Assembly (NCBI GenBank): GCA_963834265.1
Contig: CAWIAU010000001.1
Span: 469,523 to 533,522 of the forward strand
Direction of reading: 5' to 3'
DNA: 64,000 nucleotides
From: an uncultured bacterium
Lineage (GTDB): Bacteria; Patescibacteriota; Saccharimonadia; Saccharimonadales; 2-12-FULL-41-12
A model generated the notes under the pieces. That model saw nothing but the letters and a program-made list of their open reading frames with translations, was not told the origin of the DNA and searched no databases. Shown here one piece after another: positions 1 through 56,520 of the stretch. Position 1 is the stretch's first letter. The number at the start of each line of letters is the position of its first letter. The position numbers and the translations under genes are program-made.

Positions 1-35
1 ATCAGGAACTTTTCGGGCCTGAGACAATCCATGGA
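1..35 (-). repeat. Window-truncated copy of the modular intergenic repeat family: inverted start of module Z (atcaggaacttttcgggcctgag) followed by the ccatgg junction motif
   Basis: Exact reverse-complement match to ctcaggcccgaaaagttcctgat at 31526-31548 and a near match at 5215-5237; seen directly in the sequence. Confidence 0.6.
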
Positions 36-610
36 AAAATTACTAAAGATAATTTTGATTTATAAGAAGTTATTGAGAGTTTGGGGGTTGTTGTCCGGAA
101 AGTATTGCTAATGTGCCGGGGCTGACTCTGAGTGTTAGTGTTCTGTCAAAATGACGTCCTATGGCCGGATGTGTGCCCGGATCTCCTAATTCTCTTAACC
201 CAGCGGATATCTGTGCAATGTGTAAACCTGCCGTGGCGCCTTCTTCTCCCATTAAACTTGTAACCGGAGGTAATTCCGGCTCAAATTGTCTACCTTGCCC
301 CCCCTCGTAGTTGGCCTCTGGCATAAAGTTCTCTCCTATAATTTTCTCTTAACAATGAGATTATACCATAGGATTCTTATGCATCTTTTTTTGATCAATT
401 ATGTCGAAGTCCATGGATTTTACCAGCATTTGCCGGAACGGATTGATGCTCAATCAAATTGGCTTAAATCACTGATACGAAATCAGTTTTGCTTCTCATA
501 TAAATAATAAAGCGGGACCGACCAAAGGGAGTCTTTCGTATCAAAGGCTATTCTGGTATTGGGTGGCAGACATTTGATTGGCAACCGCCGCGGCTCTTTT
601 GAATACTTTT

Positions 611-670
611 CTAGCTGAAGAGAAAAGTAGGTCGAGCCGACCTTCAGGTCGGGCTGAAACTGATTTTTCT
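611..670 (-). repeat. Inverted degenerate copy of the module X start (aaatcag-ttcag-...cctgaaggtc...) of the intergenic repeat family. It also forms a GC hairpin plus T-run that could terminate topA on the minus strand
   Basis: The reverse complement aaaatcagtttcagcccgacctgaaggtcggctcgacctacttttct aligns with 56261-56310 (ttaaatcagcttcagaccggcctgaaggtcagcccgacttcctttttg). Confidence 0.5.
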
Positions 671-703
671 AATCACTAATCCCTAAAACCTAATCACTTA
701 CTC

Positions 704-2998: not shown

Positions 2999-3150
2999 GC
3001 ATCTCCGGATTATTCAAATAAAGTTGTAATGGTTAGTATACCCTACTCTTATAAAGGACAAGTTTCAAGCCTACGATGCTTGCTAAGCCTAGTCAAGAGG
3101 TTTGGAATAATCCTTATGGTATAATATTATCAATCTAAAGAGAGATCAAA

Positions 3151-4821
3151 ATGTATAAAAGCTTTATAAACGGGTTGATACTCGCAGTATTGCTGACAGC
3201 AACTTTGTTGCAGGCCGCTACTCCTGTCTTTGCAGCCACATCAATCAGACTGTACCTGAATCCCGGGTCAAGGACTGTTACGAACGGTACGGCTTTCGCT
3301 GTACAGATGCGTCTGAGCAAAAACGACAACACATTTGTCAAACACGTCCGGGCCAGCCTCAACTTTCCTGCAGATAAGCTGGCAGTGAGTTCGATCTCTT
3401 CTGCGGGCAGCTACTTTATTGTCCCGGAGGGCGTCGGGGCAACTTATAATAACAGCACCGGAACGGTTACATACGAAGGCGGTAATGATGATTCTGCAAA
3501 TGCAGGAGACTTTCTGGTCGCAACCATCAACTTCGTGACTAAGAGTCCGGGCACTGCGGGTGTGATATTTAATGGTCAGTCCAGGGCTACCTTTACGAGC
3601 AATGGCGAGAATCGTCTGACTGGTACAACAGGCGGTACATATACTATTAGTTCTCCACCCGCGCCCCCTCCACCGCCAGGCCCGTCACCACCCCCCCCGC
3701 CCGGTCCGTCTCCGTCACCACCCCCCGCCGGCAATCCGGTTATACCGCCAATCCTTTCTATACCTGCGCCAGCATCACCTCTGTCACCTGGTGGTATCAG
3801 GCCCGCACCAGGCGCCCCTACATCAACTCCTGCCAATCCACCACCAGGTACAGCTCCTGATACTGAAGATATCAACAATGAATATTCTCCTGAATCCGGT
3901 CCCGTATTTCAGGTAAGTAACATACAAGTGACTGAAGTTACCAGCAGTTCGGCTATTATCAGCTGGGAGACAGCTCAGGGGACTACCGGTACAGCAATAA
4001 GTTATGGAACTGATGCCAAAAACCTCAGGAATGTTCGTCAGGCAGGCGATCCACTGTCTGATGTGAGAATAAAAATTGATAAACTTCCCTCCGGTAAGAC
4101 AATATATTATGAGATAACTGCTGTAGATGGAAGTCAACAGGCAGTACATAAGGGCAGTTTCAAAACCGTTAACGGACCTTTCTGGGCTTCGAATCTTTTC
4201 CGGGGTTTCATGATTCTAACGGGGCTGATACTACTTTTAGGATTATTATTCTTTCTGTTCAGAAAAAATCATCATCGTCGTCATGCAAAATCCGGTCTTT
4301 CTCCGGCGCTTCAGAATACCAGAGCTCCATCACCGTCTGAAGCATCAGCAATTCTGAGCGCAGTAGCTACCTCTCACAAAAAGCAGACGGCAAAAATCAG
4401 TTCGCCTGCTCCATCACCGCCACCTCCGAAAATAATGCCCTTGCCGCCACCTCAGCTACCGCATATTGATCCGGCAATTAGCAAATTCGCGCCGATACCG
4501 GAATCCGTCACGAATATAGAGCCACAGCCACAATCTTCTGCGCATAAGCACGAAAAGTCTTCGGTGCCGGCTCCTCCTAATGTACCTGTACTTCCTCCCG
4601 CGACCACTCCTGAGCCTATCCCGTATACCGGCAAGGCTTCTACCTCTGCAAATCCCAGCACGCACTGGCCATGGACTGCCGAAGGCCAGACTACTCCGGC
4701 TGGTGCCGCTGCGACGAAATCAAAGCTACAGGAATATAAGGACGAACCCGACATGTTTGAGCTTGGTGAAGCCCGCCTGAAACAGGAAGAAGCGGAGCTG
4801 GCAAAGAAAAATCCAAAATAG
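3151..4821 (+). CDS. Secreted or membrane-anchored surface protein. It has a signal peptide, a cohesin-like Ig-fold domain, a polyproline linker (PPPPGPSP repeats), a fibronectin type III-like domain, a TM helix and a Pro-rich cytoplasmic tail
   Basis: N-terminal hydrophobic signal (LILAVLLTATLLQAATPVFA); the pattern GDFLVATINFVTKSPGTAGVIF resembles cohesin-like domains; VSNIQVTEVTSSSAIISWE is an FN3-like start; hydrophobic segment FMILTGLILLLGLLFFLF. Confidence 0.7.
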   Translation: MYKSFINGLILAVLLTATLLQAATPVFAATSIRLYLNPGSRTVTNGTAFAVQMRLSKNDNTFVKHVRASLNFPADKLAVSSISSAGSYFIVPEGVGATYNNSTGTVTYEGGNDDSANAGDFLVATINFVTKSPGTAGVIFNGQSRATFTSNGENRLTGTTGGTYTISSPPAPPPPPGPSPPPPPGPSPSPPPAGNPVIPPILSIPAPASPLSPGGIRPAPGAPTSTPANPPPGTAPDTEDINNEYSPESGPVFQVSNIQVTEVTSSSAIISWETAQGTTGTAISYGTDAKNLRNVRQAGDPLSDVRIKIDKLPSGKTIYYEITAVDGSQQAVHKGSFKTVNGPFWASNLFRGFMILTGLILLLGLLFFLFRKNHHRRHAKSGLSPALQNTRAPSPSEASAILSAVATSHKKQTAKISSPAPSPPPPKIMPLPPPQLPHIDPAISKFAPIPESVTNIEPQPQSSAHKHEKSSVPAPPNVPVLPPATTPEPIPYTGKASTSANPSTHWPWTAEGQTTPAGAAATKSKLQEYKDEPDMFELGEARLKQEEAELAKKNPK

Positions 4822-4852
4822 ATACATTTTTATAATTTAAATCCAGTTTTAT

Positions 4853-5430
4853 GACGACTTGAAAAGTCGCCCCGAGTCACTTTCTTGTGCCAACAAAAAC
4901 CATGTTCTTCCGACGAAGAACCAAGTCGATACTTTTACCAACAGCTGCAAAAGTATCCAAAAAGAGCCGCAGCGGTTGCCAAAACAAAGACTGTCACTCA
5001 AAACCAGGTTAACCTGTGACATGGAAAACTCCCTCTGGTCGGCCCTGTTCTATTTTATTAGCAGAACGAACAGGGCTGGTTCCATGCCAATGATTCAGAT
5101 CAACCTGAATGAGCGTCAATCCGTTTTGCCAAATGCTGGATGGAACCATGGACTAAAGTATTTTTATTTATAAATAATCCAAAATTATCTTTAGTAATTT
5201 TTCCTTGGATTTCTCTCAGGCCCGAAAAGTTCCTGAGGAGCGAGTGCCAAAAGCACAATTAGAGCCGAAGCAATGTTTGAGACATTTCCTCTTTGAGTAT
5301 AGTTAAGAAATGTTGAGTTTGCTGAGCATTGTGGTTTTGACAATGAGATCCTAAAGAATCTTTTCGTCGCCTGTTGTTTCTTTGCCTACTTTCTGGTCAA
5401 CACAAGAAAGTAGGTTGAGGTGACTCTAAA
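4853..5430 (+). repeat. Archetype full copy of the modular intergenic repeat family (X+Y+Z contiguous). Module X 4853-4990 has a tgccaac-loop hairpin, the gttcttccgacgaagaac hairpin and gttgccaaaa. The middle segment carries actccctctggtcgg plus a variable hairpin. Module Y 5110-5152 is gttttgccaaatgctgg...ccatgg. Module Z 5215-5430 is caggcccgaaaagttcctga...gtgccaaaag...hairpin cctactttctggtcaacacaagaaagtagg
   Basis: Module-by-module similarity to 28035-28290, 28975-29050, 30645-30895, 31515-31737, 56255-56520, 1-35 and 611-670; seen directly. Confidence 0.8.
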
Positions 5431-5467
5431 GAGTCAACTTGAAATGGGTTTTATAAAAATAATAACT

Positions 5468-6328
5468 TTATTTGAGTTTCCAGTGATTATTTCCCAGCGG
5501 GTGGAGGACGCCTTTGATTTCCAGCATAGTCAGATGTTGTTGGAATTGCTCTACGGGCAGATCGCTTTTGAGTAGCAGTTCATGGCCGTCCTGAGATCCG
5601 CCCCGAAGATGGACCAGTATAGCCTCTTCCTCTACATTTTCGGCGTAATACTTATGTTGTGTCTCTTGTGTTGTGATATTAATATTCATTGCCTCAAAGA
5701 TATCCCCGATACATGTCACGGGCGTAGCGCCTATTTTGATCAGGTTATTCGTACCGGCACTGGTCGGACTGGTAATGTTGCCGGGTACAACCAGTACCGT
5801 TTTGCCTTGCTCCATGGCAAAACGAGCAGTATGCAGACTACCACTTCTTTCAGCAGCTTCTGTTACCAGCAAAGCATCGGAAAAGCCGGCAATGATCCGG
5901 TTGCGCTCAATAAAGCTCCCCTGATGCGGACGCGCTGCATTTTCGTATTCGCTTACCAGCAAACCACCGGATTCTGTGATTTGTCGTGCCAGACTGTGGT
6001 GACTGGCAGGATAGATAGCTTTGACCCCGCCCGGGAGCACTGCAATAGTCGTGCCATGTGTATCAAGCGCTGCTTTATGAGCAATGCTGTCTACTCCCAA
6101 AGCGAGTCCGCTGACTATTACAATTCCCTGCCTTGACGCAGCAGATGTCAGATCGGTGGTAATTGTTCTGCCGTACGGAGTGATATTTCTTGATCCGACA
6201 ACACCAAGTACCGGATTCTGAAGTAATATTTCCAGGTCAGCCCCCATGCAGGTTAATTGCTTTGGTATCTGAGGCAACTGCTTTAGTCTTTCAGGGAGTT
6301 CGTTACAAGATAATATTGTCGGTTTCAT
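5468..6328 (-). CDS. dprA: DNA processing protein A (DprA/Smf), Rossmann-like DNA-binding domain
   Basis: 286 aa; VVGSRNITPYGRTIT...VIVSGLALGVDSIAHKAAL...LPGGV...ERNRIIAGFSDALLVTEAAERSGSLHTARFAMEQGKTVLVVPG are typical DprA motifs. Confidence 0.88.
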   Translation of the reverse strand: MKPTILSCNELPERLKQLPQIPKQLTCMGADLEILLQNPVLGVVGSRNITPYGRTITTDLTSAASRQGIVIVSGLALGVDSIAHKAALDTHGTTIAVLPGGVKAIYPASHHSLARQITESGGLLVSEYENAARPHQGSFIERNRIIAGFSDALLVTEAAERSGSLHTARFAMEQGKTVLVVPGNITSPTSAGTNNLIKIGATPVTCIGDIFEAMNINITTQETQHKYYAENVEEEAILVHLRGGSQDGHELLLKSDLPVEQFQQHLTMLEIKGVLHPLGNNHWKLK

Positions 6329-6370
6329 TTTTTCATCAAGTTGTTATTTATACAAAATAAGTTTAAGGTA

Positions 6371-6399
6371 TTGACATAAAGTAATATTTTTGCTATTAT
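6371..6399 (+). promoter_or_regulatory. Near-consensus sigma70-type promoter: TTGACA, 17-bp spacer, TATTAT
   Basis: TTGACA at 6371-6376, 17-nt spacer, TATTAT at 6394-6399; no ORF follows for more than 500 nt. Confidence 0.7.
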
Positions 6400-6405
6400 T
6401 GCAAC

Positions 6406-6757
6406 TTGTAAGTCCCGTTTAGCGGGATTTTCGTACCTTACACCCAATGTTTGTCCGACAGGCTTGCCTGGGAGACATTCGTTAGATTGTTTTAGAGTTT
6501 ATACTAAGTTGTACCCTCCGCTTAGTATATATTATCTTACGACTTGTCGTGAGAACTCTAAAACAAGCTAACCCCTTTAACTACAACCATTAAAGTGAGT
6601 CTGAATGATTCCGTCTTACGACGGAGACACAGGTCCGTATATACTACCTGGACATTGATGTTTCGCTGGGTGGGTTGAAGGGTGTTTTTTGAGCTTGACA
6701 GGTTCGAGCTCTGTAAGGAGCTTCCAGCGGTGCCCACCCCCTCTGGAAGCTCCTTTT
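6406..6757 (+). ncRNA. Candidate structured noncoding RNA (about 350 nt) of unknown class, transcribed from the 6371 promoter and ended by an intrinsic terminator. It contains multiple internal hairpins (for example tatactaag...cttagtata 9 bp, cttacgac-ttg-gtcgtgag, tccgtc-ttac-gacgga) and a long-range helix gttttagagtt/aactctaaaac
   Basis: The promoter-to-terminator unit contains no ORF of 60 aa or more on either strand, has dense secondary structure, and sits 185 nt upstream of the next gene, which has its own TATAAT box. Confidence 0.5.
6717..6757 (+). terminator. Intrinsic terminator: 11-bp perfect stem ggagcttccag/ctggaagctcc with a 15-nt loop, followed by TTTT
   Basis: Perfect inverted repeat at 6717-6727 and 6743-6753, then a T-run at 6754-6757. 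Confidence 0.7.
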
Positions 6758-14083: not shown

Positions 14084-14158
14084 GGTCCCGTCGTCTAACG
14101 GTCAGGACACCAGGTTCTCATCCTGGCAATAGGGGTTCGATTCCCCTCGGGATCACCA
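14084..14158 (+). tRNA. tRNA-Glu (anticodon CUC), 75 nt with encoded CCA
   Basis: Cloverleaf: acceptor GGTCCCG/CGGGATC, D-arm GTCT..GGAC, anticodon stem CCAGG/CCTGG with loop TTCTCAT, T-arm AGGGG-TTCGATT-CCCCT; close to the E. coli tRNA-Glu scaffold. Confidence 0.9.
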
Positions 14159-15779
14159 CAAGAGACTTTGCCTCGTGCAAGGTCTTTTTTGATGACGATA
14201 CTTCTTTGTCTAACAGATGTGCTTCACGAAAAACGTATCCAGTTTTTGTGGTTCCAAATTTCATGTCTGCAAATACGCTTACGCCATTAGGCAAAACCAT
14301 CTTTTGGAACCGTAATCTGTTGTCACCATCTGCAATGTTCCACATACGGGCAGCGTTGGCCATATAGTCGATAGCCATATCAATTACTTTGTTCACGTCT
14401 AGGAACTCCTGCTCAATCTCACTGAGTTCAATCTCCATACTGGTACGTTCTATGGCAATCTTGTCTTTTTGCTCCGCAAGTTCGATGTCGTTAATGGCAC
14501 CACGTCTACACATGTCTATATATTCAGACTTTTGTTTGTCGAGGTCTGTTATATTCTTCTGTGCCATCGTTCGTCTGGCAACAGTTTCTGCGTAGTCAGC
14601 ATTCCACTTGCGAAGGACTATCTCTCTAAAAAGAGAAAGAGAGGCTGGAGAGGGCTGTAAGCCCTCAATTAGCCTCTCGAATGCCTCGTGTAACTCCGTA
14701 CGAGCTAGCGTAAGGTGCTTGTACGTACCTTTCTGCTTTCCCGTACGTCGTACTACGCCTTTGCAGTGCGTACAGTGATAGTACTCGTAGGCACCACCTG
14801 AGCGTCCCTTAGAAAGGCTACCTGTAAGCGTATTACCGCAGTAGCCACATGTTAAAAACCGTCGTAATGTCCACCTGCTTCGATTTTCACCATACGTGTG
14901 TTTCGGTTGGTCGTTATCGCCACGTAGCCTTGATTGTATCTGCCAATACTCGTCGGCGGTGATGAGTGCATTGTGAAAATGTAATCCCACTTGCATGTCA
15001 TCAAGCCCTTTACCACTTACAAAACCCGCATATATGGGGTTTCTGAGCATTGAGTAGACTGTGCTTTGACCAACTGGCTTATCGTACATCTTGCTGTATT
15101 TGCGTTTGCCATTAACAAGGGTTAAGCCTTTTGCTTGTATCTTGTACTTGCTGGCTGCTAGCGTAGAGGCACTGTCATTCAATATCTTGCCTTTAGCGAA
15201 ATCCTTGAGAAAACGCTGGACGTGCTTTGCCATCTCATCAGGTTCAACCGTCGGACGCTTTAAGCTATCTTTGATGTTTCGGTACCCAATCGGTGCTTTA
15301 TGTACCCAGCCGCCTTCCTGTAGCCTTGCTTGCATCCCTTTCGATGAACGCTCAGAGCGAACAGCATTGTCAAACTCAGCAAACGAAGCCAAAATGTGCT
15401 CCATTAGCTTGCCAGACGGTGTGTCCTCGAGTAGCTCAGTAGCAGAGCACAGTCTTATGCCCAACTTCATGAATATATTTACCAGTGCTATGTGGTCCTC
15501 GGTTTTACGAGCGAGCCTATCCAGCTTCCACACAACGACGTACTTGATTTCACCCTTATGTTCCATGCAGTAGCTTATAAGCTCTTTGAGCTGAGTACGG
15601 TCGGCAGTTTTGGCACTTTCACCTTCTTCTATGAAAACCCTTTCAACTGTGGCGTTAAGGCTTTTGGCGACAAAGTCACGACAAGCCTTCTCTTGCATCT
15701 CAAGACTTTTGTTCATCTCGGCTTGCTCTACGGTTGATACTCGTGTGTAAATAACAGCTTTCATGCCTGTCTCCTCCAC
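14118..15779 (-). CDS. Large serine recombinase/integrase (resolvase catalytic domain, recombinase domain, zinc ribbon, coiled-coil). The likely start is at 15764 (MKAVIYTRVS). The 3' end overlaps tRNA-Glu by about 40 nt
   Basis: IYTRVSTVEQ (catalytic Ser region), ...VVVWKLDRLAR..., zinc-ribbon CGYCG...CTHC, 553 aa. Confidence 0.9.
   Translation of the reverse strand: MEETGMKAVIYTRVSTVEQAEMNKSLEMQEKACRDFVAKSLNATVERVFIEEGESAKTADRTQLKELISYCMEHKGEIKYVVVWKLDRLARKTEDHIALVNIFMKLGIRLCSATELLEDTPSGKLMEHILASFAEFDNAVRSERSSKGMQARLQEGGWVHKAPIGYRNIKDSLKRPTVEPDEMAKHVQRFLKDFAKGKILNDSASTLAASKYKIQAKGLTLVNGKRKYSKMYDKPVGQSTVYSMLRNPIYAGFVSGKGLDDMQVGLHFHNALITADEYWQIQSRLRGDNDQPKHTYGENRSRWTLRRFLTCGYCGNTLTGSLSKGRSGGAYEYYHCTHCKGVVRRTGKQKGTYKHLTLARTELHEAFERLIEGLQPSPASLSLFREIVLRKWNADYAETVARRTMAQKNITDLDKQKSEYIDMCRRGAINDIELAEQKDKIAIERTSMEIELSEIEQEFLDVNKVIDMAIDYMANAARMWNIADGDNRLRFQKMVLPNGVSVFADMKFGTTKTGYVFREAHLLDKEVSSSKKTLHEAKSLVVIPRGIEPLLPG
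14164..14190 (+). terminator. Intrinsic terminator after tRNA-Glu (stem gactttgc/gcaaggtc plus T6)
   Basis: Hairpin at 14164-14184 followed by tttttt at 14185-14190. Confidence 0.6.
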
Positions 15780-17141: not shown

Positions 17142-17940
17142 CTATGTAAACTTGGAGACACGCAATAGGTCGGACTTATATGATTTAACCAGTGTAGTTA
17201 CAAAAGTATGCCGAAAACCATGAATAGTCTTTTCAATCTCAAGCTCTGTCAACAATTCTTTTACGACATACCGCAGTCCTCGTGTTGTTAATCGACTGCC
17301 TTTTGTTTTGCCCCAAAGTGATGTGAATAGGGGTAATGCTTCGTCTCGCACCTGTGAGCTGCGTAGATACGCCCTGATGGCTTTGGTCGCCCTCGGGGTG
17401 GAGACAGATGTATTGTTTGCTGTCTCTGCCTTTTCCTAGCACTTGAACACGACCAGAAGCTAGGTCAACATCACCGATGTCCAACCGTACTATTTCTATT
17501 TGCCGAAGCCCTTGATACAGCAGCAATGCTACCACTGCCCGTAAGCGTAGTATCTTGAAACTGTCTGATTGCTCACGAAGGTGCTGACATACCATCTCCG
17601 CTTCCTGCTCCGTCAGACCCTCAACTTTGTGTTGAAGTGTTTGCTGGAACGACTTGACACCCAAGCTCAGGTCAATCGAGATTGCTCCACGCCTATACAG
17701 TTCCTTGAGTGCTATACGGGCAACTGCTAAGTATTTATTCTTGGCGGCAATACCGAAATCTGTTCGGCTACGCAGATATTTCTTATACTCCAGCAATGAA
17801 TTACGGTTGATGCCGTTACGGTGGAGAAAACCCGCAAATTGTGGCAGCCGTGCCAAGTAATCCTGCTTAGTGCTTTCGGCTATGTCCATATCATCAAACA
17901 GTGTCGGTGTGCCAATAACAGATAGAAAATTACTCATCAC
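17142..17940 (-). pseudogene. Tyrosine recombinase (XerC/D or phage-integrase family), frameshifted and C-terminally truncated
   Basis: N-terminal part 17239-17940 has the box I region LRLRAVVALLLYQGLRQIEIVRLDIGDVDL...VLGKGRDSK. The C-terminal HGFRHTFVT motif (HxxRH) is in another frame at 17142-17351. No catalytic Tyr segment was found. Confidence 0.7.
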
Positions 17941-19928: not shown

Positions 19929-21176
19929 ATGCCGATTGTCGGTGGCCAAATGTATGCAGAAGCCAGAGAGCAATTACGCAACTTCAACGAGCTGAATGTA
20001 CTTATACTTGGTTCAAGCACGAGAGAGATTGTAGCATTTCTGGAACAACTCAGCACGATGCACGTATACATCAATCAAACTCTGGGAACTAATGTAGGCA
20101 TAAAAGTTCACTGCACTGGTGCTTTTGATAGCAGAATTGCCCAACACTTTGGCTTAACGGTCCGTTCGCTGTCCGATATAAACGAGACTTCAACAAAAGA
20201 GCTTGTTCAAGCTGCCGACATTGACGTTATCTTCGACCAAGACAATGTATTGAGCAAACGGTACGCCCAGGATAATTTCTATGCCTTTCAGACTGTGAAT
20301 AGACTGACCGAGCTAGTTGCTTCCTGTGAAGACTTCTTAGTAGGAAATGACATCGCTTGGCTCTTTTCAAACATTACGTGGAACTTGCCCCTATTTATGC
20401 GTTACTTTGACCGCCCTGGGTTGTGTAGGGACTATTTTATGTTTATGGGCGAATGTACGGGCACTCACGGTTATACTAGCGACCAACAAGATAAAGTCAG
20501 GTACATCGCTAACCGCCTCGGGCAAATCGAGTATTCAAAAGACATCATACAGTCCTATATCAAGCGTATGCGTAAGGCAAAGCGTAATGGTTACTCGGAG
20601 CAAGATTTTGGTCTAGAGCTGAACTATCATCTTGGAAACTACTACTTCCTGATTGCTGGAGTTCTGGATAGTATGGCAAGGCTGTTGAATAACGTCTTGA
20701 AACTAGAACTAAACCGTCACCAGCTAGCACTTGAAAAAGAGGATTTTATTAACGCCAACAGGCGTAAAAGAACTGGCCTCGTCCGCATACTCACCAAAAG
20801 AGAGTTCACAGATTGGCAAAGCTTTTTAAAAGAACGCCGACACTTTATAGCCCACGAAGGTGATATGAGACAAAGCCCCCTCGTCGAGCAAAACGATGTA
20901 CTGCTAACTAACGACGAGGTAGAGAGACTGGTTGATGCCCAGAGCGACTGGACATATATGGCAACATTCACCACACGAGAAGTTATCCAAGCATTACGAG
21001 CTCAATCGGCTCAGATGGTTCGTATACAGCACGATTACAAAACAGTTGCTGAGTACGCAATGATAGTACCGAACGCCAACGGTACTAAGATATTCCAGCC
21101 CTTGAGGAGTATTGAGTATGACTATGACCAACTTGCTGACGTAATGACTAAGTTCCTGGCTAGATTAAAGGGCTGA
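19929..21176 (+). CDS. Hypothetical 415-aa cargo protein with a Rossmann-like N-terminal domain and a C-terminal R-x4-H (HEPN-like) motif (KERRHFIAHEG); candidate RNase or abortive-infection effector (hypothesis)
   Basis: Alternating beta-alpha pattern NVLILGSST...MHVYINQ...GIKVHCTGAF...DIDVIFDQD in the first roughly 120 aa; RRHFIAH motif at about residue 305; located on the integrated element as the last gene of an operon. Confidence 0.55.
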   Translation: MPIVGGQMYAEAREQLRNFNELNVLILGSSTREIVAFLEQLSTMHVYINQTLGTNVGIKVHCTGAFDSRIAQHFGLTVRSLSDINETSTKELVQAADIDVIFDQDNVLSKRYAQDNFYAFQTVNRLTELVASCEDFLVGNDIAWLFSNITWNLPLFMRYFDRPGLCRDYFMFMGECTGTHGYTSDQQDKVRYIANRLGQIEYSKDIIQSYIKRMRKAKRNGYSEQDFGLELNYHLGNYYFLIAGVLDSMARLLNNVLKLELNRHQLALEKEDFINANRRKRTGLVRILTKREFTDWQSFLKERRHFIAHEGDMRQSPLVEQNDVLLTNDEVERLVDAQSDWTYMATFTTREVIQALRAQSAQMVRIQHDYKTVAEYAMIVPNANGTKIFQPLRSIEYDYDQLADVMTKFLARLKG

Positions 21177-28034: not shown

Positions 28035-28290
28035 CTTTTTTTAAATCAGTTTCAAATGCCCTGCTTCGCAGTCCACTTGAGCTACTTTCTTGTGCCAACA
28101 AGAAAGTAGCCAAAGAAATGGCAGCAGTTGCCAAAAGCCTACTGAGTCCAATACCAGACTGACTTGTGATGTCCAGGACTCCTTACGGTCGGTCATTTTT
28201 ATAATTTTATAAGAGAAAAATGACTGGCTGGACATCAATGATTCAAGTCACCCTGATTGGACTCAATCGGTTTTGCCAAATGCTGGTCAG
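28035..28290 (+). repeat. Copy of intergenic repeat modules X+Y (perfect 11-bp hairpin ctactttcttg-tgccaa-caagaaagtag; gttgccaaaag; actccttacggtcgg; ggttttgccaaatgctgg)
   Basis: Alignable with 4853-5152 and 30645-30895. Confidence 0.75.
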
Positions 28291-28303
28291 AATCAATAAT
28301 CAG

Positions 28304-28906
28304 CTAAAGAGCGATCATAGTGTTAAGGGCAGTATTTATTGCTGAAATTGCTTCCGTTTCTTTCGTTGCTTGTGGGTCTTGCTGTGAGCTTGTACAACTT
28401 CCCCCAGGAGGACCCGCCAAATAATAGTAATCGTTAAGTTGTTTTTTGAATCGTGGGCTGTTTTCAGACATCATTGCGTCGTAGGTTTCCTTGAAGCTTC
28501 CCGCTTCACCAATTTCACCTATATATTTATCCAGTGCTTTACCTCTCTCAATAATAACCGTGCTGGCTGTGCAGTCTTTTGTAATGTTGTCTAAAATTTT
28601 TGACCTAAAGGCAAAGACAATGTTGCCATTTTGTTTTGTGTAAGCAAGACCATCTACCTGATCATTCAGTGGTATTTTAATTCCCCACTCGCTAACCGTT
28701 AAGTATTTTTGACTTGCTACTACTTCGTTCGTTGTATCAGTTTCTGGCTTTGGGTCATTCTTCTGAGAAGAAACCGATGAAGAATCTTCATTTTTATCTT
28801 TACTGGCATTAATCACATAGAATCCTGTGCCGGCAATCATTGATAAGGCAACGATTATTAATATGCCCTCGATTACACCGAAACCTTTTTGAGTAAGCTT
28901 TTGCAT
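28304..28906 (-). CDS. Type IV pilin-like protein (class III signal peptide, prepilin cleavage motif KGF|GVIEG with Glu at +5)
   Basis: N-terminus MQKLTQKGFGVIEGILIIVALSMIAGTGFYV. Confidence 0.75.
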   Translation of the reverse strand: MQKLTQKGFGVIEGILIIVALSMIAGTGFYVINASKDKNEDSSSVSSQKNDPKPETDTTNEVVASQKYLTVSEWGIKIPLNDQVDGLAYTKQNGNIVFAFRSKILDNITKDCTASTVIIERGKALDKYIGEIGEAGSFKETYDAMMSENSPRFKKQLNDYYYLAGPPGGSCTSSQQDPQATKETEAISAINTALNTMIAL

Positions 28907-28974
28907 AATATACTCTGCATTTCGATTATGGTTGTTTTAAATTACTATACAGCTTTTGATCTTAAATAAATACT

Positions 28975-29050
28975 TTAGTCCATGGCTCCCAACCAGGCCT
29001 TACAGCTTCCTGATAAGCGAGTGTCAGAAGAACAGTTCTTTTCTTTGCTA
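28975..29050 (+). repeat. Degenerate copy of the module Z start (ccatgg...caggcc...cttcctgataagcgagtgtcagaag)
   Basis: Aligns with 31515-31560 and 5146-5250, with an internal deletion. Confidence 0.5.
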
Positions 29051-30611: not shown

Positions 30612-30644
30612 CCAGGATTATATTTTCGATTAATTTTTTTGATA

Positions 30645-30895
30645 AAAAATAGTTCTTCCGACGAAGAACCAAGTCAATACTTTTGTCAGCAGCAACAAAA
30701 GTATCCAAAAACGCCGCAGACAGTTGCCAAAATCACGATAGAAAATCAGTCCAAATAGAGCGTGGCTCCGGAACTCCCTCCGGTCGACCCCACCTTATAT
30801 TTTTATAGAAAGGCGGGGCTAGTCCTCGCCAATGACTCGCTCTATTTGCCCGAATTTTCATCGGTTTTGCCAAATGCTGAAGTAATTCATGGATT
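30645..30895 (+). repeat. Copy of intergenic repeat modules X+Y (gttcttccgacgaagaac hairpin; gttgccaaaa; actccctccggtcga; ggttttgccaaatgctg; catgga)
   Basis: About 85% identical to 4904-4984 and alignable to 5123-5152. Confidence 0.75.
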
Positions 30896-30956
30896 TTTTT
30901 TATCAATTTAAAAACATATCATTGATAATTTTACCTTAATATGATAATGTGATGAA

Positions 30957-31502
30957 ATGGTAATTCCGCTCGAGGCTCAGACCTTTGAAACATATGAAGC
31001 AAATACGGCATCGCAAAGAACGGCTCTTGGACTTTCGAGAGATATAGCTAATTTGGCTATTGAGCAATTTGCGTGTAGTGAGCCGACAAAACCTGCTGCA
31101 TTTTATTTTTCGGGCCCTGCGGGCGTTGGAAAGACACATCTACTTCATTCAATTGCAGCAGTTCTTATTGAAAATGAAATCCCGCATGCTAGATGGCAGA
31201 AAGACCTAGGACCTTCAGTAGCTGAACAGATTAAACATGTACAATTAATTGATGATTTTGATCCTACCTTACTTTATATATTTAATCGGGCTGTTGTTGA
31301 CTGTTACTATCCGAGAGGTCAGTTATTAGTTATTAACTCTAATGAACCATTAAAAGTTGTCAAAAATGGACTTAAAAGTATCGATGAACACGGACGTGCG
31401 GCTTCTCGTTTGTCAGAAATGATTAAAAGAGGTCAGGAAATCAAAATGACGGGGCCTGATCATCGACAAACAGGTAATTTCCCCAAAGCTATTCCAAAAT
31501 AA
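30957..31502 (+). CDS. DnaA domain III / Hda-like AAA+ ATPase (181 aa; there is no DnaA N-terminal domain or domain IV)
   Basis: QTFETYEAN (compare DnaA YTFDNFV), Walker A FSGPAGVGKTHLLHSI, Walker B LIDDFD, sensor-1 LLVINSNEPL. Confidence 0.7.
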   Translation: MVIPLEAQTFETYEANTASQRTALGLSRDIANLAIEQFACSEPTKPAAFYFSGPAGVGKTHLLHSIAAVLIENEIPHARWQKDLGPSVAEQIKHVQLIDDFDPTLLYIFNRAVVDCYYPRGQLLVINSNEPLKVVKNGLKSIDEHGRAASRLSEMIKRGQEIKMTGPDHRQTGNFPKAIPK

Positions 31503-31514
31503 TAATGTGTTTGT

Positions 31515-31737
31515 CCATGGTTTGCCTCAGGCCCGAAAAGTTCCTGATTAGCGAGTGCCAAAAGTACAATTAGAGCGAAGCAGTGTCTAAGCCAATCTCT
31601 CATTGAAAGTAATTAAAAATTGGTGAGTTTGCTGAGCATTGTGCTTTTTGACAATAAGATCATAAAGAAGCTTTTCGAGCCTGTTGCTTCTTTGCCTACT
31701 TTCTGGTCAACACAAGAAAGTAGGTTGTGGTGACTTT
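31515..31737 (+). repeat. Copy of intergenic repeat module Z (ccatgg...ctcaggcccgaaaagttcctga...gtgccaaaag...hairpin cctactttctggtcaacacaagaaagtagg)
   Basis: About 85-90% identical to 5215-5430. Confidence 0.8.
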
Positions 31738-31784
31738 TAAGTCGTCATGAATATGGATTTTATTAAAAATAATTCTTTATGGGT

Positions 31785-42034: not shown

Positions 42035-42089
42035 ACAGTAATTATACTTTATAATAGATAAAATACAAAGTATATTGTTTAAAGTTTAT

Positions 42090-56244: not shown

Positions 56245-56254
56245 TTTTTTTTAA

Positions 56255-56520
56255 ATCAGCTTCAGACCGGCCTGAAGGTCAGCCCGACTTCCTTTTTGTG
56301 CCAACAAAAACGAAGCGAAAAAATGGCAGGACTCGAAAAGCTTTTTTATGATCTCATTGTCAAAAAGCACAATGCCCGGCAAACTTGATATTTCTTTTAT
56401 TAATTTTTACAGAATAAAATATCTTCAAACACTGCCTCGACTCTATTTGTGCTTTTGACACTCGCTCATCAGGAAGCTTTTCGGGCCTGGCAAAAACCAT
56501 GGACTGAAGTATTATTAAAC
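56255..56520. repeat. Mosaic copy of the intergenic repeat. It has the module X start with the hairpin cttcctttttg-tgccaa-caaaaacgaag, the inverted module Z middle and start (tctcattgtcaaaaagcacaatgc; ttgtgcttttgacactcgctcatcaggaagcttttcgggcctgg), and the Y-end motif aaccatggactgaagtatt
   Basis: Segment-wise matches to 28035-28140, 5215-5330 (reverse complement) and 5143-5165. Confidence 0.75.

Follow-up and report, generated by a model that had tools for sequence, protein, structure and literature searches.

The 64,000 nucleotides analysed here (the window; positions 469,523 to 533,522 of contig CAWIAU010000001.1, from an uncultured bacterium of the Saccharimonadales) contain a family of intergenic repeats, one of which fills the space beside dprA. 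We lean towards reading these repeats as a lineage-specific family of non-autonomous mobile cassettes. The element is previously undescribed: it lacks a transposase, is armed with hairpins and often holds a small orphan gene. Comparison with the nearest sampled relatives, which stand at a genus-level distance, indicates that whole units entered short, AT-rich spacers between genes after the lineages split, and that they brought with them genes without a counterpart at those sites in the relatives.

Architecture of the repeat units

Repeats were identified by two BLAST runs over the window, one with positions 4822–5467 as the query and one with the entire window. The matches of both runs (2–65, 408–629, 28036–28297, 28963–29037, 30652–30937, 31500–31780 and 56246–56517; E-values down to 7e-74; Table 1) belong to a single family, and the self-comparison found no second one. 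All copies lie between open reading frames (ORFs), in both orientations, and they cluster at 0–5.5 kb and 28–32 kb of the window. An original prediction, made from the letters alone, had described a mosaic of modules X, Y and Z at eight or more loci. Each of its segments was recovered by the self-comparison and the repeats are real and intergenic, but the eight segments fall in five intergenic places.

The three modules resolve into two kinds of arm, each about 300 nt long. In the XY arm, an outer end that bears two hairpins, termed hp1 and hp2, is followed by the rod hairpin Y and then by an inner end, CCATGGACTAAAG; the Z arm, read inverted, has an outer end (~100 nt) and an inner end as in XY, around an unrelated rod. 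A unit comprises an XY arm, a centre that is empty or holds a gene, and a Z arm, with the outer ends facing outward. Two features had been missed: the bracketing of genes at three places, and the terminal inverted repeats of the unit, which are formed by the XY and Z outer ends over ~60–100 nt. An alignment of all ends shows that X starts with an inverted repeat of the sequence that ends Z, and that the end of Y stands in a like inverted relation to the start of Z. When XY arms were compared with inverted Z arms, the outer ends aligned (local alignment z up to 19.6) and so did the inner ends, but the bodies did not. [quoted passage not shown]

The outer end (~100 nt) is built of an A/T tract, AAATCAGTTTCA, a variable GC-rich hp1, hp2 and a linker (CCAAAGAAA..GCAGC), while the inner end common to both arms contains TACTTTAGTCCATGG. 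The hp2 pattern TACTTT..AAAGTA occurs in six exact copies in the elements, with one further, unrelated match in the window, compared to 0.02 expected. Both rods are long imperfect hairpins, of 164–171 nt (Y) and 156–163 nt (Z). A covariance model of rod Y (R1) found four copies in the window at 161–213 bits (next match, 17 bits), and one of rod Z (R2) found three full copies at 185–217 bits, the rest being noise. The total, counted over the 64-kb window of one genome, is four XY–Z units (A to D) and one solo Z arm (E), or four XY arms with three full and two partial Z arms; each XY arm faces a Z arm within 0–700 nt. A lone hairpin at 42045–42072 (TACTTTATAATAGATAAAATACAAAGTA) has stem ends as in hp2 and is otherwise unlike the family.

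In unit B, rod Y is closed by pairing of GTTGCCAAAAC with GTTTTGCCAAAT, with a conserved C-C mismatch, and bears a conserved loop (ACTCCYTNNGGTCG). In rod Z, CAGGCCCGAAAAGTTC pairs with GAAnCTTTTCG..CCTG and TGCCAAAAGCACAAT with ATTGTGnTTTTGACA. The AT palindrome at the centre of unit B is the position occupied by a gene in units A, C and D, and the Z outer end is the inverted repeat of the XY outer ends. An additional solo outer-end fragment at the start of unit B is of the Z-arm type (79% identical to 31711–31769, inverted). Two segments were reassigned. Positions 611–670, described as an inverted start of X, belong to a complete inverted XY arm (405–672), and 56255–56520, previously split into an X start, Z pieces and a Y end, is instead one complete inverted Z arm (56246–56520) with its own outer and inner ends; it was misread because the X start and the Z end are mutual inverted repeats. 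The outer end of this arm lies 2 nt past the purP stop and its inner end ~35 nt from the cfa stop.

Outer ends are 81% identical between the XY arms of units B and D, 87% between the Z arms of B and D, and 74% between the Z arm of E and the XY arm of C, compared to 61–62% between the Z arm of E and those of B or D. On these alignments, outer-end types do not track arm type and the family is truly mosaic, as had been proposed; outer-end types recombine independently of body types. The presence of the same outer-end types at both ends of units B and D is as expected from copying of the whole unit.

Empty sites in relatives and the genes at the centre of the units

The named homologues of the window's DprA come from Candidatus Saccharimonadales and Saccharibacteria, which assigns the host to the Saccharibacteria (Saccharimonadales). 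The closest relatives have DprA proteins of 74, 70 and 67% identity and PEGA proteins of 69 and 66%. Three units were compared with these genomes. First, the gap between the PEGA gene and the convergent sortase gene is 25 nt in relative L110, 20 nt in relative L111 and 1173 nt in the window, which has unit D there. Second, the gap between g370 and the PEGA gene is 90 nt in L111 and 1194 nt in the window (unit C); the ancestral spacer, as seen in L111, aligns with both flanks of the unit, on the left to ~28030, and the PEGA promoter region resumes at ~29062. Third, dprA and topA are 75–85 nt apart in L106–L109 and ~2.4 kb apart in the window, where g556 and unit B lie between them and the ancestral topA promoter stretch is kept beside topA (~2999–3100). 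In 25 kb of relative DNA, largely syntenic with 13.8–42 kb of the window, neither BLAST nor the two covariance models found a copy, and no repeat family of the relatives' own was seen. The hp1' of unit B resembles the ancestral dprA–topA spacer (TTGACTCTTTAG), a similarity too short for interpretation.

The suggestion of an inserted non-autonomous element is supported by these three empty sites and by the content of the units, in which neither a coding remnant nor a transposase was found. Unit B (4832–5462) has no conserved ORF, and single-base indels between copies break every frame. Hidden coding sequence or a transposase remnant in the modules was also considered and rejected, as the ORFs there are chance ORFs without a Pfam family.

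Three of the four XY–Z units enclose a gene between their inner ends: orf84 in A, g200 in C and g181 in D. The genes occur in both orientations, and each reads outward into an arm. None of the three matched a curated family above cut-off (Pfam, NCBIfam and PADLOC were among those searched) or any transposase or recombinase family, and a defence role was discarded in the absence of a PADLOC match above noise. Their G+C content at third codon positions is 0.38 (orf84), 0.35 (g200) and 0.25 (g181), compared to 0.42–0.50 in core genes, and by this composition they look foreign or young. The N-terminus of g200 (KGFGVIEGILIIVALSMIAG) appears type IV pilin-like, by eye only. The g370/PEGA site has no g200 in L111 and is occupied in L110, the closest relative, by an unrelated gene of 270 aa (L110 9044–9856); insertions may recur in this spacer, which would make it a hot spot. 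The g181 product is a minimal AAA+-like P-loop orphan, with a single near-identical match among 5.8 billion proteins. Sequencing run ERR12037361 contains an identical DprA and a g181 of 99% identity. It resembles DnaC, IstB, ZapE and DnaA in the Walker-A region only, far under cut-offs, and an AlphaFold model made with regard to an IstB/TnsC-like link was unusable (predicted local distance difference test score 39.7).

Beside unit B, the best non-self homologue of g556 is 36% identical (among 1.84 billion representatives); the gene is fast-evolving and, on the comparison with relatives, entered the dprA–topA spacer along with unit B. The promoter/leader stretches of g556 (3105–3143) and orf84 (335–372, minus strand) share ~35 nt, AAnAATCC(T)TATGGTATAA...AAGAGA, with a local alignment score of 31 compared to 17.1 ± 2.9 in shuffles, and TGGTATAAT occurs only 3 times in the window. 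The two genes may have a common promoter module, or this may be just a local promoter consensus.

If the units are mobile cassettes, a transposase or recombinase would recognise their hairpin-bearing ends and act in trans; it would have to be encoded elsewhere, because the units contain no recombinase. After insertion, the rods and terminal hairpins would probably form transcript ends or insulators that separate the cargo from the flanking genes, the majority of which point towards the unit; such a role would account for the upkeep of pairing by compensatory change.

Several points weigh against mobile cassettes. No cognate transposase with these ends was seen in the window. Comparison with the empty sites of L110 and L111 gave A/T-tract junctions (TTTTTT^AATAAAA at unit C) and no unambiguous direct repeat that would mark a target-site duplication; the AAAT beside the unit ends is itself part of the inverted repeat. 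The copies differ by 16–36%, so they bear no sign of recent movement, and the nearest relatives are distant (DprA 74%, PEGA 66–69%), so that insertion is read across a genus-level distance. Unit E is a lone arm without inverted repeats of its own, and the evidence comes from 64 kb of one genome of 720 kb. Finally, mobile cassettes give no account of how different genes came between identical arms.

The only recombinases in the window are a serine recombinase (14118–15779) and a tyrosine recombinase fragment (17239–17940), both in a separate island. The serine recombinase gene (minus strand) overlaps the 3' part of a tRNA-Glu(CTC) at 14084–14158, and in L110 the tRNA region is directly followed by other genes; the stretch from 14084 to ~21400 looks like an integrated island. 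It also holds an HEPN_Cthe2314 protein (19929–21176) and has no XY or Z copy within it.

Searches for known counterparts were negative. INPHARED and PLSDB gave no phage or plasmid match by blastn, pattern scans of IMG/VR gave nothing or lone 16-mer chance matches without extended similarity, and scans of JGI metagenomes gave no match. An exact 18/19-mer scan of GTDB species representatives returned 27 single matches in unrelated phyla, roughly as many as chance would give, and those fetched loci that were readable had no extended similarity. Literature searches on Saccharibacteria and Patescibacteria brought up no account of repeats of this kind. The modules could have been fragments of a known insertion sequence (IS) or prophage, as was considered when they were first noticed; no link to an IS, prophage, plasmid or Rfam family was found.

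Conserved pairing and alternative readings

The XY consensus fold, on the strand opposite to X→Y, has 65 pairs with 92.2% of cells paired. Changes on both sides were seen in 27 of the 65, compared to 12.5 ± 2.4 in shuffles (0/500 reach 27) and 3–9 in slid controls. The apical helix is 100% paired with 7/9 pairs covarying. Among the four XY copies pairing stays at 92% despite 26–36% sequence divergence, mostly through compensatory changes. For rod Z with the outer hairpins, the fold comprises 78 pairs with 91.8% of cells paired, double changes number 11 (5.3 in shuffles), and folding energies are far under those of shuffled sequence (z down to −8.7). Considering these comparisons, conserved pairing is strongly supported for both rods. 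The structured RNA proposed earlier therefore stands as to structure, with covariation that beats the shuffled and slid controls; a wobble count gave no significant preference for RNA over DNA or for either strand.

It is possible, if rather doubtful, that the arms are primarily functional structured RNAs (a small RNA, a 3' untranslated region stabiliser, a terminator or an insulator), transcribed outward from the AT-rich centre, that their spread is secondary, and that the RNA at each locus is what selection acts on. The maintained pairing and conserved loops such as ACTCCYTNNGGTCG would fit, as would the outward reading of all three cargo genes into an arm and the better folding of the strand antisense to X→Y (alifold −39 vs −23 kcal/mol; minimum free energy z −6 to −9 in three of four copies). 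In units B and D, hp1 read on the minus strand precedes a T run and has a terminator-like score, but not every copy qualifies, and hp1 was rejected as a universal terminator. No conserved outward promoter was found at the inner ends or before the rods across the copies compared. In an unbiased arm-versus-arm alignment neither strand has a significant G.U excess (Y 9 vs 15, p=0.31; Z 5 vs 9, p=0.42), and the assignment of a strand, or of RNA, from wobble asymmetry was given up, as it was not significant once prediction bias was removed. Rfam recognised only three tRNAs at gathering score in the window, and at E<=10 its best matches to 4800–5480 had 16–20 bits (E-values 0.9–9.5), with no family. 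A primary RNA function also leaves the inverted-repeat ends and the co-inserted genes out of account. A small ORF in antisense Y after a GGGAG motif was rejected, as it has a start codon in unit B alone.

A bolder form of the mobile-cassette reading, which we consider unlikely, is that the two-hairpin ends and covarying rods are working parts of an undescribed gene-delivery system of candidate phyla radiation (CPR) bacteria and not ordinary IS relics. Self-insulating cassettes would be recognised as folded single strands, possibly during natural transformation, and orphan genes would be inserted into the short core-gene spacers of a 0.7-Mb genome. The organism carries dprA and genes read as pilin-like.

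It is quite improbable that the units form a site-specific cassette system like that of integrons (attC) or CALINs, with the rods acting as recombination sites in folded single strands and a tyrosine or serine recombinase swapping genes in and out between the inner ends. Like attC sites, the rods are imperfect palindromes that conserve structure above sequence, have conserved extrahelical or mismatched bases and lie beside promoter-less or small accessory genes; different promoter-bearing small genes stand at one position between the inner ends, and L110 has another gene at the g370/PEGA site. However, the ends of rod Y (GTTGCCAAAAC/GTTTTGCCAAAT) and rod Z (CAGGCCCGAAAAG/CTTTTCG..CCTG) do not fit the attC core sites RYYYAAC / GTTRRRY on either strand (by inspection), and the rods, at 157–171 nt, are longer than attC sites. 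The layout also differs, with arms inverted around the gene and not in a one-orientation array, cargo in both orientations and no adjacent integrase.

We give little credence to an origin without mobility, in which a single ancestral intergenic region would have undergone segmental duplication, leaving relics that gene conversion keeps alike. The mosaic similarity between modules does indicate recombination among copies, and the clustering noted above would agree, but the flanking genes are unrelated core genes in synteny with element-free relatives, both orientations occur and the insertions lie exactly in short ancestral spacers.

The motif TGCCAA, formerly counted four times per full element, occurs 5 times in 4822–5467 (4888, 4977, 5085, 5127 and 5245). 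It had also been proposed as a protein-binding array, but most of it is helix sequence, and outside the repeats TGCCAAA is no commoner than chance would give (15 observed vs 13.5 expected over the whole window). Rod Y is closed by a mismatched helix whose strands are the two TTGCCAAA copies, and rod Z contains a pairing of GTGCCAAAAG with CTTTTTGACA. It is highly improbable that TGCCAA(A) is itself the working part, as a regulator's binding-site array or a DNA-uptake signal of a naturally competent bacterium: its five occurrences in unit B all share a strand (in 4.9% of randomisations, a 6-mer with three or more G/C is present at least 4 times) and GTTGCCAA occurs 9 times in the window compared to 2.4 expected, but the chance level of TGCCAAA outside the repeats argues against a genome-wide uptake sequence, two copies form a pairing within rod Y while rod Z has one copy paired to TTTTTGACA, several positions differ between copies so that the motif is not kept everywhere, and its orientation is not mirrored between inverted arms.

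Known elements and further observations in the window

A resemblance to BOX, Correia or RUP elements had been suggested. It holds for the modularity of BOX, but the gene-enclosing inverted arm pair is closer to mobile insertion cassettes (MICs), and in the best-supported analogy the units would be functionally most like MICs and MITEs. MICs such as MIC231 of Bacillus cereus and the qnrS2 cassette of Aeromonas plasmid pAC3 have inverted-repeat ends around a passenger gene and no internal transposase; their movement is presumed to occur in trans, and they are found alongside MITE-like versions that have no cargo (PMC3129680, PMC5444012). The units share with MICs the inverted-repeat ends around a passenger gene (A, C and D), the lack of a transposase and the absence of the whole unit at orthologous sites. 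They differ in that their ends are ~100 nt long with two hairpins, compared to the short IS-type inverted repeats of MICs, that each arm adds a covarying ~160-nt rod, that the host is a CPR bacterium, and that neither a parent IS with these ends (in the window) nor a target duplication was seen.

Correia/NEMIS elements of Neisseria and RUP elements of Streptococcus pneumoniae are non-coding and intergenic, lie in either orientation, often at gene 3' ends, and have terminal inverted repeats that form hairpins when transcribed. The units resemble these MITEs in having terminal inverted repeats and no transposase gene and in lying between genes in either orientation. However, unit B, at 640 nt, is several-fold longer, the two arms differ from each other, genes are enclosed in three of four units and no TA or other duplication was found, a separation that is based on descriptions and not on sequence comparison. 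BOX elements of S. pneumoniae (boxA-boxB-boxC) are modular and combine variously as a linear A-Bn-C array of 45–59-nt modules without cargo, whereas the modules here are 100–170 nt and form an inverted pair. The ERIC/IRU and REP/BIME repeats of enterobacteria are imperfect palindromes in transcribed intergenic DNA whose hairpins affect mRNA ends and stability; they are single palindromes of 20–127 nt without a two-arm-plus-gene layout. REPs are palindromes of 20–40 nt that have a conserved tetranucleotide and depend on RAYT transposases; the modules here measure 100–170 nt, and no Y1/HUH transposase was found among the window proteins scanned (part of the window ORFs). What sets the element apart from every system compared is how large its ends are and what hairpins they contain, the pair of unrelated covarying rods that share a single scaffold, and the host.

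The genomes of Saccharibacteria and other CPR bacteria are tiny and densely packed with genes, and to our knowledge their mobile elements have barely been described. Here, three orphan or atypical genes and a fast-evolving fourth lie within or beside one structured arm pair, where relatives have only 20–90 nt. The units would offer a concrete route by which a reduced genome could gain accessory and envelope genes, and they provide two new covarying ~160-nt nucleic-acid structures that can be searched for in other genomes. Should the hairpin ends truly define a new insertion mechanism in CPR bacteria, the significance would be greater.

Table 1 Repeat units, their parts and BLAST matches in the window.
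Feature	Position	Strand	Remarks
Unit A	1–672		Inverted; runs past window start
Unit A Z arm, inner end and start	1–65	-	90% identical to 5168–5236
Unit A cargo orf84, 84 aa	70–324	-	TGGTATAAT extended -10 box and AGGAGAG ribosome-binding site upstream
Unit A XY arm	405–672	-	R1 194 bits; starts ~32 nt past topA stop
Unit A XY arm parts	hp2 604–629; rod Y 423–591		Inner end CCATGGAC
Promoter and g556, 556 aa	3100–4821	+	N-terminal membrane segment; adjoins unit B, between dprA and topA
Unit B	4832–5462		640 nt; no cargo between inner ends
Unit B extra solo outer-end fragment	4832–4900	+	hp1-like GACGACTTGAAAAGTCG and degenerate hp2
Unit B XY outer end	4904–4968	+	hp1 4904–4921, hp2 4930–4955, linker
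Unit B rod Y	4969–5139	+	171-nt imperfect hairpin, five helices
Unit B facing inner ends	5140–5216	+	CCATGGACTAAAGTA and TCTTTAGTAATTTTTCCTTGG; flank AT palindrome 5164–5177
Unit B rod Z	5217–5373	+	157-nt hairpin, 216 bits
Unit B Z outer end	5374–5462	+	hp2' 5387–5412, hp1' ~5416–5440; abuts dprA stop 5468
Unit C	28036–29040		Z arm truncated
Unit C XY arm	28036–28297	+	R1 199 bits; hp2 28083–28108, rod Y 28121–28286
Unit C cargo g200, 200 aa	28304–28906	-	
Unit C Z arm, truncated and degenerate	28963–29040	+	Inner end and first ~45 nt of rod Z
Unit D	30640–31775		
Unit D XY arm	30640–30897	+	R1 161 bits; begins ~30 nt past PEGA stop
Unit D XY arm parts	hp1 30650–30671; hp2 30678–30703; rod Y 30717–30880		
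Unit D cargo g181, 181 aa	30957–31502	+	
Unit D Z arm	31500–31775	+	R2 217 bits; 84% identical to 5198–5463; abuts sortase stop
Unit D Z arm parts	rod Z 31528–31683; hp2' 31697–31722		hp1' follows hp2'
Unit E, solo complete Z arm	56246–56520	-	185 bits; rod Z 56327–56489
Match to 4822–5467	2–65		Inverted; 90% over 69 nt
Match to 4822–5467	408–629		Inverted; E=1e-27
Match to 4822–5467	28103–28286		E=7e-11
Match to 4822–5467	28963–29037		
Match to 4822–5467	30652–30732		88%; E=3e-22
Match to 4822–5467	31510–31773		84% over 269 nt; E=7e-74
Match to 4822–5467	56334–56503		Inverted; 79%; E=6e-31

Two further non-coding features were noted near topA and dprA. Just downstream of topA, a doublet of CTAATCACT at 669–698 has a counterpart in an intergenic region of L108, where the motif occurs twice (6119–6153 and 6343–6367); it is not enriched in the window. 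Just upstream of dprA, ~420 nt of non-coding sequence (6329–6750, minus strand) are 70–77% identical to the dprA-upstream regions of relatives whose DprA proteins are only 67–74% identical to that of the window. Rfam gave nothing for this stretch, even with the limit set at E<=1. Of the 101 pairs in its consensus fold, 19 have compensatory changes, with the long-range helices CCCTTCAACCC/GGGGTGGAAGG and GTTTTAGAG/CTCTAAAAC included, and the stretch is probably an undescribed structured RNA of the lineage.

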